A stretch of 64,000 nucleotides of DNA, taken from positions 28,727 through 92,726 of the IMG/VR virus record IMGVR_UViG_3300005077_000936, one strand, 5' to 3'. This stretch comes from a virus. Within the stretch, counting starts at the first letter, position 1. Each line of letters starts with the position of its first letter. Position numbers and translations under genes: made by a program. The notes beneath the pieces are model-generated. The model was not told the DNA's origin. It saw nothing but the letters and a program-made list of their open reading frames with translations, and did no database searches. Shown piece after piece: positions 15,501-21,840 of this stretch.

Positions 15501-16514
15501 TTGTCTTATTTTTGTCCCATGTATGGATACCATAATCCTCAAGCATATACACAGTCAAGTATAATAGGAAGATACAGACAGGAAGATATATTTGCACTTG
15601 GAATGAATGGAGAGCTTCCCGAACTTGGAAAATATTATCTTTCACCTTTCAGAAAAGATGATACAAGTCCGGGATGCTTCTTTGAATGGTATAAAGACAA
15701 ACTTGTGTTTGTTGACTTTGCTGATCCTGTAATCAACAGGGACTGTTTCTACTTCATAAAGGATATATTCAACCTTCAGGATATACCTTCCACTCTTGAT
15801 TTGATAATGGAATGCTTTCTGCAAAACAAGACACCTGAAATGACTAACCCTGTTCTAAGGGAGTATCAGGAGAAAAAAAGAAGCCAAATATTTTTCAGAA
15901 CAAGACAATTTGAGGAAAGAGACAGACTTTTCTGGTCACCCTATGAAATAACATTCAGTCAGTTAAGATCAGATAATGTGTTTGCAGCATCAATGATAAA
16001 GATGTACCTTCCAAAGAAAGATAAATGGAGTATTTACAGACCTTCCCATATCTCTTATATAATAGGAGGATTTGGGGAAAGATGTAAAGTATACAATCCT
16101 ACAAGAAAGAAAGACAAATGGTTTACCAACTGTACCAAGGATGATGTAGGAGGCTTGAAGTCTGTTAATTACAAAAGTAATCATCTTATCATTACAAAGA
16201 GCTATAAGGATTGGAGGGTAGTTGTCAATCAAGGATATAACTCGGTTTGGTTTCAGAATGAAGGAATGTTTCCATCATCTGAGATACTGAATAATCTATT
16301 AACAATCCCAAAGGTCATTATATTCTTCGACAATGATGAGACAGGCTTCAAGGCTTCTAACTCCTTGAAGGAGCTTTTACTATCGTTTAATACCAATTCA
16401 CTCATTACTCAACTTTTCTCTCCTTTCTTTTATCTGAAGGATGCTTCGGATATCTTATCTGTTAAAGGAAGAGGAGAACTACAACAACTTTTATGGAAAG
16501 AATGCCATCTGTAA
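15501..16514 (+). CDS. DNA primase (TOPRIM)
   Basis: SPFRKDDTSPGC, ITKSYKD, FFDNDETG. The start may be 15519. Confidence 0.85.
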   Translation: MSYFCPMYGYHNPQAYTQSSIIGRYRQEDIFALGMNGELPELGKYYLSPFRKDDTSPGCFFEWYKDKLVFVDFADPVINRDCFYFIKDIFNLQDIPSTLDLIMECFLQNKTPEMTNPVLREYQEKKRSQIFFRTRQFEERDRLFWSPYEITFSQLRSDNVFAASMIKMYLPKKDKWSIYRPSHISYIIGGFGERCKVYNPTRKKDKWFTNCTKDDVGGLKSVNYKSNHLIITKSYKDWRVVVNQGYNSVWFQNEGMFPSSEILNNLLTIPKVIIFFDNDETGFKASNSLKELLLSFNTNSLITQLFSPFFYLKDASDILSVKGRGELQQLLWKECHL

Positions 16515-17146
16515 TTCATGATAGCTGGCATCCATATCTGATTGACGTTTTCCAAGATAATGACATGAAGTATCTGAATCATTTTGTACTTCCTAATTGT
16601 CAATTTGCTCCTGAGCCACAGAATATTTTCAGAGTTTTTTCCATGCCGTTGACGGATATTAAAGTTGTTATTATTGGACAAGACCCTTATTCTAAGGTAG
16701 GACAAGCAATAGGATATGCATTTGCTGTTCCTGATAATGTGCCAAAACCCTTCTCTTTCAGAATGATAGAGAAAGAAGTAGGTCATGAACTTGAGAACTC
16801 TCTTGCCTCTTGGATATCACAAGGAGTATTTCTTTTTAATACATCACTGACAGTGGAAGTTGGAAAGCCTAATAGTCATAAGGCTTACTGGCGTAGCTTT
16901 TCAATGGATGTAATAAGAATACTATCCTCTAAAGTCAATCCTGTATGGATGTTATGGGGATTGGATGCAATCTCACTTGAGAGGAACATTAAAGTGTTCC
17001 AGCTTGGAAACAAGTACATTCTCAAATCCCCCCATCCTGCTGCTGAAAGTTATGCTAACTATAAAGCAGGATTTCTTGGAAACAAACACTTTATCTTGGC
17101 TAACGAATTGTTAAAATCACAGAATAAACCCCTAATAAACTGGTAA
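16493..17146 (+). CDS. ung: uracil-DNA glycosylase, family 1
   Basis: VKVVIIGQDPY-like motif, GV.L.NT.LTV, HPAAES. Confidence 0.93.
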   Translation: MERMPSVIHDSWHPYLIDVFQDNDMKYLNHFVLPNCQFAPEPQNIFRVFSMPLTDIKVVIIGQDPYSKVGQAIGYAFAVPDNVPKPFSFRMIEKEVGHELENSLASWISQGVFLFNTSLTVEVGKPNSHKAYWRSFSMDVIRILSSKVNPVWMLWGLDAISLERNIKVFQLGNKYILKSPHPAAESYANYKAGFLGNKHFILANELLKSQNKPLINW

Positions 17147-17148
17147 TA

Positions 17149-17958
17149 ATGGATTCTAAAACACAATTCCCCACAAAGCATGTACTTGTCTATTCAACAG
17201 TAGGCAAGGGTGTGGTAGAGTTTGACACACAAGCTGCCACATGGTTAGACCTGAAGAAAAATCTCAGAGAGATGCAGGTCAAATTTGATGGCATGAAAGC
17301 TGTCATCGGAGAAAACAGACATACTCTTGAATCAGATCAGGCTACTCTTCCTGATGGTGATTTCAGCCTGTTCCTGATGCCTATTAAGGTTAAATCAGGA
17401 GCTTATACAAGAGCAGAACTTTTTGAAAGGATAAAAGCACTTGTTGCCAGCAATCCTGACATGAAACAAAAGTTCATCGTTGATGGAAAGAACATGACCC
17501 AACTCAGCACTGATAAGCTGAATGAACTTTGGGCAAAGCATGGTGAGAAAGGTGGAGTTATCTCTGCTCCTGCACCTACTGCCAAAGATACCGTAAAAGA
17601 GCAGAAACAGGCTGTCAGCAGTGTTGTGGAATCAATCAAGGGTAAGACCAGCATTGATCTTGTTACAGCACTAAACAAGCTTCATAAAGACCTTAATGAG
17701 ATAATCACTGATTATCCTGTAAAAGTCCCTACCTCTGAACTTGTTGAGTGGAACAAACACCTTGAAGCTGTTCTGAAAAACGCTGAAACTAAACCAAAGC
17801 AAAAATCTGAGCCTCCTGTTCCCATGGTTGACCCCGAAGAGGAAAGAAGAAAGGAAGAAAAGAGACTTGCAGAGGAAGCTGAAAAGAAAAGAAAGGATGA
17901 ACTTGACAAGAAAGCAAGGGATATGGCAAGGGAGTTTAAGGACATCGGAAGTTTCTAA
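17149..17958 (+). CDS. ubiquitin-like (beta-grasp) protein precursor with C-terminal extension
   Basis: Residues 1-84 have a beta-beta-alpha-beta pattern ending ...LFLMPIKVKSG, followed by a helical and low-complexity tail; located directly upstream of the E2/JAB/E1 genes. Confidence 0.65.
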   Translation: MDSKTQFPTKHVLVYSTVGKGVVEFDTQAATWLDLKKNLREMQVKFDGMKAVIGENRHTLESDQATLPDGDFSLFLMPIKVKSGAYTRAELFERIKALVASNPDMKQKFIVDGKNMTQLSTDKLNELWAKHGEKGGVISAPAPTAKDTVKEQKQAVSSVVESIKGKTSIDLVTALNKLHKDLNEIITDYPVKVPTSELVEWNKHLEAVLKNAETKPKQKSEPPVPMVDPEEERRKEEKRLAEEAEKKRKDELDKKARDMAREFKDIGSF

Positions 17959-17965
17959 TCTACTG

Positions 17966-18008
17966 AAAGTGAACTGAGTTGTATTTCTATAATTCAGTTC
18001 ACTTTTTT
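17966..18008 (+). terminator. strong intrinsic terminator
   Basis: 18-bp stem AAAGTGAACTGAGTTGTA/TATAATTCAGTTCACTTT, loop TTTC, followed by a T-run. Confidence 0.85.
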
Positions 18009-18033: not shown

Positions 18034-18174
18034 ATGAAAGTCATAAATTGGATACTTGGACTCTTTGGTTACAAAATAATCAATGTTGCCAAAACAAAAG
18101 AACAAGAATTAAAGGAAAAGGCTGAAGATATACGCAGGTCATTTCCTGATGACATTTCCCAACCTCTTAGATGA
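18034..18174 (+). CDS. 46-aa protein missed by the ORF track (MKVINWILGLFGYKII...)
   Basis: AT-rich leader; its TGA overlaps the E2 ATG (ATGA); amphipathic N-terminus. Confidence 0.65.
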   Translation: MKVINWILGLFGYKIINVAKTKEQELKEKAEDIRRSFPDDISQPLR

Positions 18175-19370
18175 TGAGATCAGAAATAGACCAAAGAATA
18201 GTAGAAAAAAGCAATATGCTTCGTAATTGGTGGGAAGACAGAGATATTACTAATACTCTTATAAAGATGAAAAGAGTTTCAAGAAGAGCAGTAAAATTCA
18301 TAAAAGACATAATTCCCATACTTGAAAATGTATATCCCAGTTTATGGGATATACAGTTCTTTCCTTACTCTGGAAATTATCAGGGAATATCTTTCAGAGA
18401 AACAGAGAAGAGATACTCTTTTTCTACATCAGATGTAAGATTTGTCACCTATCTTCCCAATATCGTAATACATTTTCCTTATTCAAAGATGACTAACATG
18501 AATAATCAAACCCATGAAATATATGATATTTATGTAAGGATTCCCATTGAATCATCTGGAAGAAGTATAATGATTACCAGAATACTTGGATTAAGACAAA
18601 GTTACTCTTACGCAGAAGCTATAAGTAACTATCGTTTTAGTCATCTTACATCAAGATCAGTGTCAGAACCTCCTGTATATGATTCTTTCTGTCTTGGATC
18701 AGGAGAGATAAACCAATGTATGGCAATGTTTAACAGTACTCAGAACCTTGCTACATTTAAACATTTCCTTTTCTACATAGAAAGTTATCTTGCTTATGAA
18801 AGCATAGAGGGAGTACCCTATGAAAAATTTGAGAAGATAAGTTCTTTTAGAGGAGCAAGATTTACTGATATTCCCAATTATGATCTCATAACAGTTTACA
18901 AAACTATTACTCAAAACATACCATTATATAAACAAGAGTATCCATTTGATTTAAGATTAACATCATCAAATGGAAAAATTAAAATTGGAGATATGGTTCA
19001 CTTTGAGAAAATAGTTAACAGGATCATTAATATGGCAATAAGAAATGGAGGGGTTCCAAGACATTTTCCTTCTGAACAATTGATATTTATGTTCAAATTA
19101 CCTGATGGAAGCAGAACAGATGCATCAACAGATGTTACTCCTTCAGGAGACATTATCTTTAATGATGAGCATTTCTATTTCAGAGGAGAAAAAAGAATAA
19201 TGAAAATAGTTGGACATGCTGTTGATTACAGTAGAATAAGAATATATGAACAAAGAGTTGTCAAACCTAAAGTACTTAACTATGTCAAAGAAAGAATTGA
19301 ACACAAACTCAACTACACCTTCACTGCCCGTAATATCACTGAAAGAATTAATCAAAGTAGTAGTTCCTGA
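18171..19370 (+). CDS. prokaryotic E2-like (ubiquitin-conjugating fold) protein
   Basis: YRFSHL followed by DSFCLGSG (His...Cys spacing of the E2 active site), in context with Ubl, JAB and ThiF genes. Confidence 0.6.
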   Translation: MMRSEIDQRIVEKSNMLRNWWEDRDITNTLIKMKRVSRRAVKFIKDIIPILENVYPSLWDIQFFPYSGNYQGISFRETEKRYSFSTSDVRFVTYLPNIVIHFPYSKMTNMNNQTHEIYDIYVRIPIESSGRSIMITRILGLRQSYSYAEAISNYRFSHLTSRSVSEPPVYDSFCLGSGEINQCMAMFNSTQNLATFKHFLFYIESYLAYESIEGVPYEKFEKISSFRGARFTDIPNYDLITVYKTITQNIPLYKQEYPFDLRLTSSNGKIKIGDMVHFEKIVNRIINMAIRNGGVPRHFPSEQLIFMFKLPDGSRTDASTDVTPSGDIIFNDEHFYFRGEKRIMKIVGHAVDYSRIRIYEQRVVKPKVLNYVKERIEHKLNYTFTARNITERINQSSSS

Positions 19371-20493
19371 GCATGTGAAGGACCAGATAAAGTATCTCTG
19401 TGCAAAGATACCAAACAATGAATGGTCAGGGGCATTATTTTATGATGTCAAAGGGTCTATTAAAGATCCTGAAAACTTTTCCATTGAACTAAAGGAAATT
19501 TTTCCTATGGATATTGGAAGTGGTGCACATACAGAATATTCACCTGATGAGGAACTTGCTACATTTATGATGGACAATCCTGAGTTTCTGCCAAAGCCTG
19601 ATGGAACAGGAATGAAAATGGGACATATCCACAGTCATAATACAATGGGTGTATTCTTCTCAGCAGAAGATGACTCAGAGTTGAATGATAATTCATCAAA
19701 CCATAACTATTATCTTTCAGTTGTCACCAATAACAAGCTTGAATTTGCTATCAAAATTGCTTTCCGTGGCAAGGTATCAGTTTCAGGTAGTGATGAAAAT
19801 GGTGAACCTTATATTATGCAGAGCAATGACGAAGTCATGTTTGTATATAAAGGAGTTGCTTATAATACTCTTCCTGTAGTTAACAGTACTTTCAGGAGCA
19901 GGATAGCATTTCTGACTGAAGAAGCAAAAAGGAAAGAAGAGAAAAGGAGAATAGAAATGGATAGCAGGTTCAAAGCAAGGGATTATTCTGCTGATAATAA
20001 GAAATATCAGGGAAAGCATTTCCAGCCTGAGCTTCCACTGGACAGTAAGACTCCTTATCATCATCCTTTAAGGATACATGAGATTCCCATTGATCAGCAA
20101 CTTGTTGATGATGTTCCTGAAAGCACTGCACTTGTTGATGAACAGTTTGTAATCAGACTTCTCTGCCTTAATAAAGGATATGAAAGGTATGCTACAATTG
20201 GTGAAGTACTTCAGGAAATAGAGAAAACTTATGAGATATATGACTATATCATGAAATACAGTACAGAGATAGTTGATATCTATTTTTCTCTTTATAGGGA
20301 AATATACGGAGAGGCAATGACCATTGAACAGATGATAGAAGATATGGATGAAACTATGATGCTTCTTGAAGACTACATAGAATCTTTTCAATGGGTTGAT
20401 TTCATTACTGATAGCCTGCAACAGCTTGCTTACAGATTTGAAGATTCTCTTATGTCAAATAATATTAACGAGGAAGAACATGGGAAGAGATGA
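19282..20493 (+). CDS. JAB/MPN+ metalloprotease with acidic C-terminal extension
   Basis: NEWSG (catalytic Glu) and GHIHSHNTMGVFFSAEDD (HxH..S..D JAMM motif); start refined to ATG 19282. Confidence 0.88.
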   Translation: MSKKELNTNSTTPSLPVISLKELIKVVVPEHVKDQIKYLCAKIPNNEWSGALFYDVKGSIKDPENFSIELKEIFPMDIGSGAHTEYSPDEELATFMMDNPEFLPKPDGTGMKMGHIHSHNTMGVFFSAEDDSELNDNSSNHNYYLSVVTNNKLEFAIKIAFRGKVSVSGSDENGEPYIMQSNDEVMFVYKGVAYNTLPVVNSTFRSRIAFLTEEAKRKEEKRRIEMDSRFKARDYSADNKKYQGKHFQPELPLDSKTPYHHPLRIHEIPIDQQLVDDVPESTALVDEQFVIRLLCLNKGYERYATIGEVLQEIEKTYEIYDYIMKYSTEIVDIYFSLYREIYGEAMTIEQMIEDMDETMMLLEDYIESFQWVDFITDSLQQLAYRFEDSLMSNNINEEEHGKR

Positions 20494-21172
20494 CAGATTT
20501 AAGGACATAGAATGGTATGTACCAAGTGGAATAGCATGCCTTGTAGGTGGAGCAGGTGGAATTTCATCATGGCTCATTTTTCTTCTTTCAAGAGCAGGCT
20601 TTACATGTACTGTTTTTGATGATGACATAATTGAAGAACATAATCTTGGAGGACAGTTATATGCAAATGACCATGTAGGAAGGCTTAAAGTTGAATCCCT
20701 TTCTGATACTGTCTCCAGATATACAGGTCAATGGCTTGATACAGTAGATACTCGTTATGATTCTTATTCAATTAATCATGAACTTATGTTTTGTGGGTTT
20801 GATAACATGCAAGCAAGAAAAGACTTTTATTTAAGGTGGAAAGAAAAGGTAAATGAAGAAGATACTGATAAAGGTCTTTGTCTCTTTATTGATGGAAGGC
20901 TTCTTGCAGAGCAATATCAAATCATTGCAATCAGGGGAACTGATGAAGACAGGATGCAACAGTATGAAGAAAAGTATCTTTTTACCGATGATGAAGTAGA
21001 TGATGCTGTATGTACCATAAGACAAACATCTCACATTGCTGCAATGATGGCAGGAAATATGGTAAGTATTATTACTAATCATATTGCCAATCATAAGACA
21101 AGACATAATGTGAGGTATATTCCCTTCTTTACTTCCTATCTTGGGCCATTAACTTTAACAGAAACAATATGA
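20480..21172 (+). CDS. ThiF/E1-like activating enzyme
   Basis: VGGAGGISS nucleotide loop, DDDIIEEHNLGGQ, CGFDNMQAR, IDGR, candidate catalytic Cys in AVCT; start refined to ATG 20480. Confidence 0.9.
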   Translation: MGRDDRFKDIEWYVPSGIACLVGGAGGISSWLIFLLSRAGFTCTVFDDDIIEEHNLGGQLYANDHVGRLKVESLSDTVSRYTGQWLDTVDTRYDSYSINHELMFCGFDNMQARKDFYLRWKEKVNEEDTDKGLCLFIDGRLLAEQYQIIAIRGTDEDRMQQYEEKYLFTDDEVDDAVCTIRQTSHIAAMMAGNMVSIITNHIANHKTRHNVRYIPFFTSYLGPLTLTETI

Positions 21173-21840
21173 GACGGATAGTTAATATATCTTTAGATAA
21201 AGAAAGGCTTTTCTCAAGTCTTATTGGATATGTAAATCCAAGAGGAGAGGATTTTCAATCAGAGTATTGTCTATCCATTATGGGAACAAGTATGGACAAT
21301 GATTTTATTCCTGTATTTGCAGGAGGAATATCTCAAGTAATTACAGTAGGAAATCGAAGGGCACTCTTGTATTCCTTATACTCAATGAATTCTGTGTCTG
21401 CATTTACAGTAGGAAGGTCAAGAAGATTTAGAACCAGTCATGGAGAGGCAATACATAACTATGACGCAGGAGCACTTGTAATCCAGAGAGAAAGATATTC
21501 TTTCATGAAAGATTGTCTTTATAAGGAGTCAGGTGAAGGAGCAACATTACTTCTTACTCTTGCTGTAAGAAGGGATAAATTCTGGACATTCAGGAGCAAC
21601 TTCTCTTATGGTTACATGGCTCTCTTTATTTCTGATGCATTCATGGAAAACTCAGAATTTAAGCCAGCAAGAAGTAAATTTGCATCTTATATCAGGACTG
21701 TAAAAGAACTCGGAATAGATGTAGTAACTACTTCATCAATTGAGAAATGGTGCTTTAATACAAGCATTGCACTACCTACATTTAATAGTCTTCAAGAAAG
21801 AAGAGAATTCTTTGGAGGTCTTACAAATCTAATAACATGA
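21169..21840 (+). CDS. hypothetical protein coupled to the E1 gene
   Basis: ATGA overlaps at both ends. Confidence 0.75.
   Translation: MRRIVNISLDKERLFSSLIGYVNPRGEDFQSEYCLSIMGTSMDNDFIPVFAGGISQVITVGNRRALLYSLYSMNSVSAFTVGRSRRFRTSHGEAIHNYDAGALVIQRERYSFMKDCLYKESGEGATLLLTLAVRRDKFWTFRSNFSYGYMALFISDAFMENSEFKPARSKFASYIRTVKELGIDVVTTSSIEKWCFNTSIALPTFNSLQERREFFGGLTNLIT

Follow-up and report, generated by a model that had tools for sequence, protein, structure and literature searches.

Does a virus encode a ubiquitin-like modifier as a precursor, its reactive glycine held inside a longer protein until a neighbouring peptidase exposes it? The question is raised by a 269-residue protein encoded on a 98.7-kb contig of a crAss-like phage, the source of the 64,000-nucleotide stretch of DNA analysed here (the window), in which a ubiquitin-like (Ubl) domain closes at Gly84 and 185 further residues (the tail) follow. 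To our knowledge, prokaryotic ubiquitin-like tagging has so far been investigated only in the setting of bacterial defence against phages (CBASS Cap2/Cap3, Bil and Bub); here its logic appears to be encoded by the virus, in a module that sits within the crAss-like replication block, with primase and uracil-DNA glycosylase (UDG) genes on one side and RusA and exonuclease genes on the other (Table 1). We read the protein as a pro-Ubl that would be cut by the JAB peptidase between Gly84 and Ala85, and put the probability of this reading at roughly 65%.

The pathway that we propose would run as follows. Residues 1-84 would constitute a beta-grasp modifier whose flexible K-V-K-S-G plays the part of the R-L-R-G-G of ubiquitin. 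The JAB/JAMM peptidase encoded two genes downstream would cut the Gly84-Ala85 bond and so expose the Gly84 carboxylate, which the small ThiF-type E1 would then adenylate, handing the Ubl on to targets from the phage or its host, probably by way of a conserved Cys in the 399-aa protein. The same cut would free the tail as a second polypeptide, comprising a helical domain of roughly 45 residues and a C-terminal amphipathic helix with its terminal motif.

Table 1. Coordinates of the Ubl-tail gene, its parts and its neighbours, counted from the first letter of the window; a slash marks the predicted cut
Feature	Position	Strand	Remarks
Primase gene	15501-16514	+	
UDG gene	16493-17146	+	
Ubl-tail ORF	17149-17958	+	269 aa; starts at the first start codon of the frame, two bases past the UDG stop
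Ubl beta-grasp domain, residues 1-84, ending in Gly84	17149-17400	+	AlphaFold2, Foldseek, VIA-align, phmmer
K-V-K-S-G, P5-P1 of the predicted cut and predicted end of the mature Ubl	17386-17400	+	
Gly84 codon, GGA	17398-17400	+	Context ..IKVKSG/AYTR
185-aa tail, predicted second cleavage product	17401-17955	+	
Small helical domain of the tail, residues 88-131	17410-17541	+	Motif ..DGKNMTQLST..L..L; pLDDT about 90
Pro/Ala/Lys-rich variable linker and helices, residues 132-228	17542-17832	+	21% identity; variable length
Charged C-terminal helix, residues 229-262, then terminal motif	17833-17955	+	pLDDT about 92
Terminal motif A-R-D-M-A-R-E-F-K-D-I-G-S-F, residues 256-269	17914-17955	+	49% identity
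Terminator-like hairpin, 19-bp stem and T-run	17965-18006	+	z -6.2; separates the Ubl gene from the enzyme genes
399-aa protein, candidate E2-like partner	18171-19370	+	Invariant Cys174
JAB/JAMM peptidase, 415 aa, predicted maturase	19246-20493	+	Glu59 at 19420-19422; H-S-H-x7-S-x2-D at 19630-19671
ThiF-type E1 adenylating enzyme	20396-21172	+	Pfam ThiF, 6.3e-10
223-aa ORF, followed by RusA-like resolvase and exonuclease genes, 3' of E1	21169-21840 (223-aa ORF)	+	

The architecture itself is firm. An internal Gly84 codon in the context KVKSG/AYTR with 185 residues behind it, as given by the initial annotation, is what the open reading frame and the codon read on the DNA, and the helical domain, Pro/Ala linker and charged coiled-coil tail that it had placed after the glycine correspond to a helical domain, a linker and a charged C-terminal helix in an AlphaFold2 model of the full 269-aa chain, built on a 22-sequence alignment (mean pLDDT 77, pTM 0.53). 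Residues 10-79 are modelled as strand-strand-helix-strand-strand at pLDDT 93-97, a confident ubiquitin-type beta-grasp. Confidence falls to 68 over residues 81-90, after which helices at 88-101, 103-109 and 121-131 make up a three-helix domain; a low-confidence stretch at 135-158 (pLDDT <50), containing SAPAPTAKD, is followed by further helices and by a long helix at 229-262 (pLDDT about 92). The tail modelled by itself has a mean pLDDT of 76.

Structural comparison places the N-terminal domain among the ubiquitins. The top Foldseek matches in the PDB are ubiquitin, NEDD8, UBX, SUMO and MoaD (probability 1.0, E about 1e-3), with archaeal ubiquitin also among the best. VIA-align lays model residues 6-84 onto ubiquitin -3 to 76 (4ii2_B, 7sol_B) and residues 10-83 onto ubiquitin 1 to 76 (2n2k); the alignments cover 68-79 residues at rmsd 1.9-3.5 with Z of 7.0-7.9, values that are middling in absolute terms, although 754 of 999 chains reach at least 5, and those listed are beta-grasp folds (ubiquitin-type, UBX, FERM-F1 and DIX). 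Because residues 83-84 are thereby placed on ubiquitin 76, Gly84 lies within one residue of ubiquitin's Gly76. Ubiquitin ends R-L-R-G-G, and K-V-K-S-G shares its pattern of basic, hydrophobic, basic, small residue and Gly. Judged by sequence, the Ubl belongs to a family that has no Pfam, NCBIfam or PADLOC model.

The residues around Gly84 behave very differently on its two sides. An exhaustive phmmer search with residues 1-84 recovered 658 representatives with E no higher than 1e-3, of which 118 reached <=1e-10; in the best 150 of these 658 relatives the Ubl domain is N-terminal without exception, and with one matched stretch per protein no tandem poly-Ubl form was seen among them. Site statistics, compiled over 160 representative sequences (the best 150 of the 658 relatives having been inspected), give Gly at P1 in all 160, Ser (150) or Ala (10) at P2, Lys at P3 in 150, Thr or Val at P4 in 151 and Lys at P5 in 147. 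At P1', by contrast, 18 different residues occur; Pro is missing at P1' and P2' and found at P3'. A protease site that is read from the Ubl side would be expected to look like this, with K-[TV]-K-[SA]-G constant and P1' diverse. The family appears to be confined to phages, as far as patterns can tell: two patterns of the family, run over the genomes of 185,579 prokaryotic species, returned no relative.

What stands behind the glycine ranges from a single residue to a whole protein. Among the 160 representatives the sequence after Gly is 1 to 280 residues long (median about 155), and it falls into unrelated classes: 1-6 residues; Asp/Glu-rich; Lys/Ala-rich; and the helical domain with coils, a class that makes up about half of the representatives and whose helical domain is found also in gp79 of Bacteroides phage crAss001. 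One-residue tails occur in protein records as ..KSGN, ..RSGN, ..KSGL, ..RSGE and ..KSGK (P0064, P0089, P0086, P0129 and P0160), three-residue tails are also present among such short-tail records, and on the DNA real TAA or TGA stops lie inside contigs for tails of 2, 2, 3, 3 and 6 residues (L027, L028, L029, L012/L020 and L030, respectively), the DNA check having covered the 2-6-residue forms and the one-residue forms being protein sequences. The L012 locus belongs to a 142-kb viral contig. A word-index search had returned no stand-alone close Ubls of 46-147 aa, a blank that reflects its low sensitivity, since the exhaustive phmmer search did find them. We also considered whether the tail of L012 might be a separate downstream ORF, the product of a split gene; the next ORF there has no similarity to the tail and is a second paralogue of the E2-like protein, carrying H-P-N..C-T-G-N-G.

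The enzymes, meanwhile, are constant. A motif scan found both JAB and E1 in each of the 12 distinct loci whose sequence extends some 3.5 kb or further downstream, including the short-tail loci L029 and L030 (by motif), Flavobacterium phage FpV4 and crAss001, and between L012 and the window the JAB proteins are 38% identical (E 4e-38) and the E1 proteins 39% (E 4e-57). Short-tail phages thus keep the enzymes while lacking the tail, which argues that processing as such does not depend on it. The conserved non-primed side of the site, its free primed side, tails of anything between a single residue and an entire protein, and the unchanging JAB and E1 together make the pro-Ubl reading the most economical. 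The initial annotation had proposed that conjugation would need a JAB cut after a single internal Gly, and every comparative test agrees with this; the cut itself is what we infer from them.

The tail is less free than that annotation had expected. Its prediction that homologues would retain KSG while the tail varied is borne out at the site, where Gly is universal and P2 is Ser or Ala, and only in part behind it, where the helical domain and the last 14 residues are conserved. Among the 22 closest relatives the Ubl and the helical domain have mean pairwise identities of 57% and 54%, whereas the linker with its coils has 21%, the C-terminal helix 25% and the final 14 residues 49%; endings akin to the terminal motif (..REFNIFD, ..RNLGIFE, ..DFSDVKR) close tails of different classes. 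Searches with the tail returned no usable match in NCBIfam, the ESM Atlas, a PDB sequence profile or Foldseek, just a sub-threshold DUF5344 in Pfam and, in a wide VIA-align search, generic long helices at Z <6, the matches listed in the tail fold searches scarcely covering the 45-residue helical domain; features of an E2 were looked for in the tail and none was found. Judging from its conservation, the tail is plausibly a functional cargo or docking module, as distinct from a disposable pro-peptide.

A more tentative thought, to which we give a fairly low probability, is that the tail is a true second product, made one-to-one with the tag and kept inactive or tethered until the separately transcribed JAB arrives, such that one cut would both start conjugation and free a cargo. 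The cargo would then be a protein of the replication module, built from a helical domain and a docking helix, or in other clades from an acidic or Lys/Ala-rich tail, and the arrangement would amount to a ubiquitin-fusion strategy like that of the eukaryotic ubiquitin-ribosomal protein genes.

A helical domain as conserved as the Ubl ahead of it would also fit a permanently fused two-domain protein. The precursor might then never be cut at all, an N-terminal UBL of the kind found in permanent UBL-domain proteins of the Rad23, UBX or parkin type docking a helical, coiled-coil protein onto E1, JAB or some other partner, with the glycine serving a structural role. No representative among the 160 ends at the conserved Gly, the helical domain begins within 3-8 residues of it in about half of the family, and the whole-chain pTM of 0.53 would suit such a protein. 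Against it stand the relatives with 1-6 residues after Gly, which are nearly free Ubls and yet lie beside the same JAB and E1; the invariance of the basic-x-basic-small-Gly sequence when everything behind it is replaceable; the dip in pLDDT at 81-90, as of a flexible linker; and the need of an E1 for a free C-terminal carboxylate, in a module that offers no other Ubl candidate. We consider a permanently uncut protein unlikely.

The pro-Ubl reading leans on what the neighbouring genes encode, and the JAB protein is a predicted peptidase, identified by its JAMM motif together with sub-threshold profile matches. Glu59, His129, His131, Ser139 and Asp142 (E..HxHx7SxxD) are invariant in seven divergent phages, gp77 of crAss001 included. 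The match to Pfam Prok-JAB has an E of 0.0058, below the family cut-off; the single sequence had no match in the PDB, and a profile of the seven sequences had CSN5 as its best PDB match, at E 0.0048. Judging by its homologues, the protein probably begins at Met13 (19282). Its gene shares 89-125 nt with the E2-like gene, read in another frame (19246-19370), and similar overlaps occur in FpV4 (125 nt), L007, L008, L012 and L013. Loss of the tail shows no clean link to loss of the C-terminal extension of the JAB protein, L009 combining a tail with a short JAB.

The E1 carries invariant GxGGI, D-x-D and DNM-x-AR motifs and an invariant Cys206 (C-T-x-K/R-Q-T-S-H). Its real start is probably Met29 (20480), the TTG start at 20396 being doubtful given that homologues begin near Met29. 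All six aligned phage E1s read N-[LMVT]-[GST]-G-Q where ThiF, MoeB and PaaA have N-L-x-R-Q, that is, Gly in place of Arg, and with this Arg lost the adenylation chemistry should not be taken for granted. Against PADLOC the E1 matches Cap2 E1-E2 (5e-6) and BilD (2e-3), and the same library (from 2023, which may lack Bub models) gave no match for the Ubl, E2-like or JAB proteins. Weak NCBIfam matches, of the E1 to PRTRC_ThiF (2.5e-8) and 6A-MBL cap2_3 (4.4e-7) and of the JAB to PRTRC_A (0.085), may point to a remote relationship with the ParB-related/ThiF-related cassettes that plasmids and ICEs carry.

The 399-aa protein encoded between the Ubl-tail gene and the JAB gene is a candidate E2-like partner. 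Its alignment, in which Cys174 is invariant within F-C-x-G-x-G and H-S-H-L lies upstream, is suggestive; the protein has no Pfam match, and its profile found none among PDB sequences. L012 carries two E2-like paralogues (L012:6304-7356 and L012:7280-8377), one with a canonical-looking H-P-N and C-T-G-N-G 12 residues on. Beyond the E1, the 223-aa ORF may be a fifth member of the module; it matches no family and has same-sized counterparts in FpV4, L007, L009 and crAss001 (gp75).

These proteins bear on a further possibility, that the cut at Gly84 does take place and the freed Ubl is a sulfur carrier like ThiS or MoaD, thiocarboxylated by the E1, with the JAB as maturase only; CysO/Mec+ and QbsE/QbsD are sulfur-carrier and JAB-type pairs for comparison. 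The E1 is indeed ThiF-sized and has no inserted catalytic Cys domain, its best NCBIfam matches are of ThiF/MoeB type, public records name it a 'thiamine biosynthesis protein', and MoaD is among the fold matches of the Ubl in Foldseek. The top fold matches, however, are ubiquitin, NEDD8 and UBX rather than ThiS, and the Ubl has no Pfam ThiS/MoaD match; no sulfurtransferase, rhodanese, ThiG/ThiH or MoaE is encoded among the flanking genes; and the conserved partner has an invariant Cys in an E2-like H-[PS]-[NHL]..C arrangement. A sulfur carrier seems to us improbable, more so than a protein that is never cut. Least credible by far is that the uncut protein is the substrate of the E1 and offers it its real C-terminus, the terminal motif being reactive and Gly84 irrelevant, as with Cap2 and cGAS in type II CBASS. 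The final 14 residues do show 49% identity and the best defence-system matches of the E1 are Cap2 E1-E2 models, but the terminal residue varies (F, K, R, Y, I, L, D, E, G, N and others) and short-tail relatives without the motif keep the E1.

A precursor cut after an internal glycine has parallels among known systems. The eukaryotic ubiquitin modifier is never encoded with a free Gly: its precursors are the UBA52/RPS27A and FAU fusions and polyubiquitin with one extra terminal residue, from which a deubiquitinase frees anything from one residue to a whole functional protein. Both extremes recur in the phage family, as one-residue tails (..KSGN) and as tails of 100-280 residues; eukaryotic precursors differ in ending Gly-Gly, in being cut mostly by Cys proteases and in their tandem poly-Ubl forms, of which we saw none here.

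Closer still is type I Bub, in which BubAB is made as a pre-protein that the JAB domain of BubCD cleaves directly behind Gly229, freeing a functional E2 (Ye et al. 2024, PMC11601596). In both, the Ubl stands at the N-terminus of a longer chain and closes with a single conserved Gly, and the E1 consists of a small adenylation domain of ThiF type; a JAB/JAMM peptidase encoded in the cluster cuts after that Gly in Bub and is predicted to do so here. The part released by BubCD, however, is an E2 (BubB, of UBC fold) and here a helical, coiled-coil tail; JAB and E1 are fused in Bub and separate genes here; and the Bub operons are bacterial and thought to serve defence or stress, whereas the present genes lie in the replication block of lytic crAss-like phages.

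In Bil, BilC cuts BilA at Gly97-Ala98, and also cuts a Ubl-GFP fusion (Chambers et al., PMC10557695), and among Bil homologues the overhang behind the Gly can reach 9 residues (PMC10557695; Hor et al., 10.1101/2023.09.04.556158). Like Bil, the phage module has separate genes for Ubl, E2, JAB and E1, its E2 being a candidate; the glycine at the cut follows a small residue, as in the Ala-Gly/Ala of Bil, and some relatives have short overhangs. Unlike Bil, a bacterial anti-phage defence whose natural overhangs stop at 9 residues, the phage proteins have tails of up to 280 residues with conserved domains, and BilD, which the window E1 matches weakly (E 2e-3), has a catalytic Cys domain.

A phage Ubl domain has also been described in TAPI (gpI) of lambda and T1, with a predicted cut by the neighbouring TAPK JAB (Iyer, Burroughs & Aravind 2006, PMC1779556). 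There too a linker and another small domain come after a Ubl with a conserved Gly, but TAPI belongs to a tail-assembly cluster that has no E1 and whose JAB is fused to NlpC/P60, and here the setting is a replication module with an E1. We rejected membership of the lambda-type TAPI group for the present gene, which is not in a tail-assembly cluster and whose JAB protein gave no match to an NlpC/P60 domain. Given BubAB/BubCD and BilA/BilC, the precursor layout is not a new principle; what is new is that it is encoded by a virus, that the Ubl belongs to a sequence family without a model in Pfam, NCBIfam or PADLOC, and that its natural tails greatly exceed those of Bil in length and variety.

A strong terminator-like hairpin follows the Ubl-tail gene directly in all 16 long-tail loci, FpV4 and crAss001 among them (the window; L001, L003, L005, L007-L011, L013, L017-L019, L021, L024 and L025), and is missing in all five loci with tails of 2-6 residues (L012 and L027-L030). 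Circumstantially, its placement would fit a precursor made in excess of the enzymes or earlier than them; the idea in the initial annotation that the JAB might double as a timing switch is speculation. The 213-nt gap behind the terminator is long in the window, where it is occupied by a 46-codon ORF (18034-18174, + strand; MKVINWILGLFGYKII..) with a hydrophobic N-terminus, whose stop runs into the ATG that starts the 399-aa gene (ATGA, 18171-18174); other loci have just 40-65 nt at this place and no such ORF.

The same module is present in a phage that is in culture. gp79 of crAss001 is a member of the family (hhalign probability 97.5%, E 5e-12) and reads ..KKIKSG/AMSR.. at the corresponding site; the genes run gp79, gp78, gp77, gp76, with gp77 the JAB and gp76 the E1. 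Public labels call gp79 'hypothetical', gp77 a 'metalloprotease' and gp76 'thiamine biosynthesis' or 'ThiF', and among searchable papers none joins crAss-like phages or crAss001 with ThiF, gp79 or a ubiquitin-like system. gp76 (L017, 5542-6693) is extended at its N-terminus by about 150 residues, which the window E1 and the other aligned phage E1s lack. With gp79 to gp76 forming the same module, the cut can be tested at the bench.

Among the crAss-like phages are the most abundant ones of the human gut, and a cultured model for their tagging pathway exists in crAss001, with gp79 as the Ubl-tail protein, gp77 as the JAB and gp76 as the E1. The precursor layout offers the most direct test of the pathway, as it predicts one cut site, and target lysines should bear a Ser-Gly remnant after trypsin. 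Natural tails of 1-280 residues behind one site would show which parts of a precursor a JAB tolerates. If the tail is a working protein, the family would provide a prokaryotic-virus parallel to the ubiquitin-fusion genes of eukaryotes.
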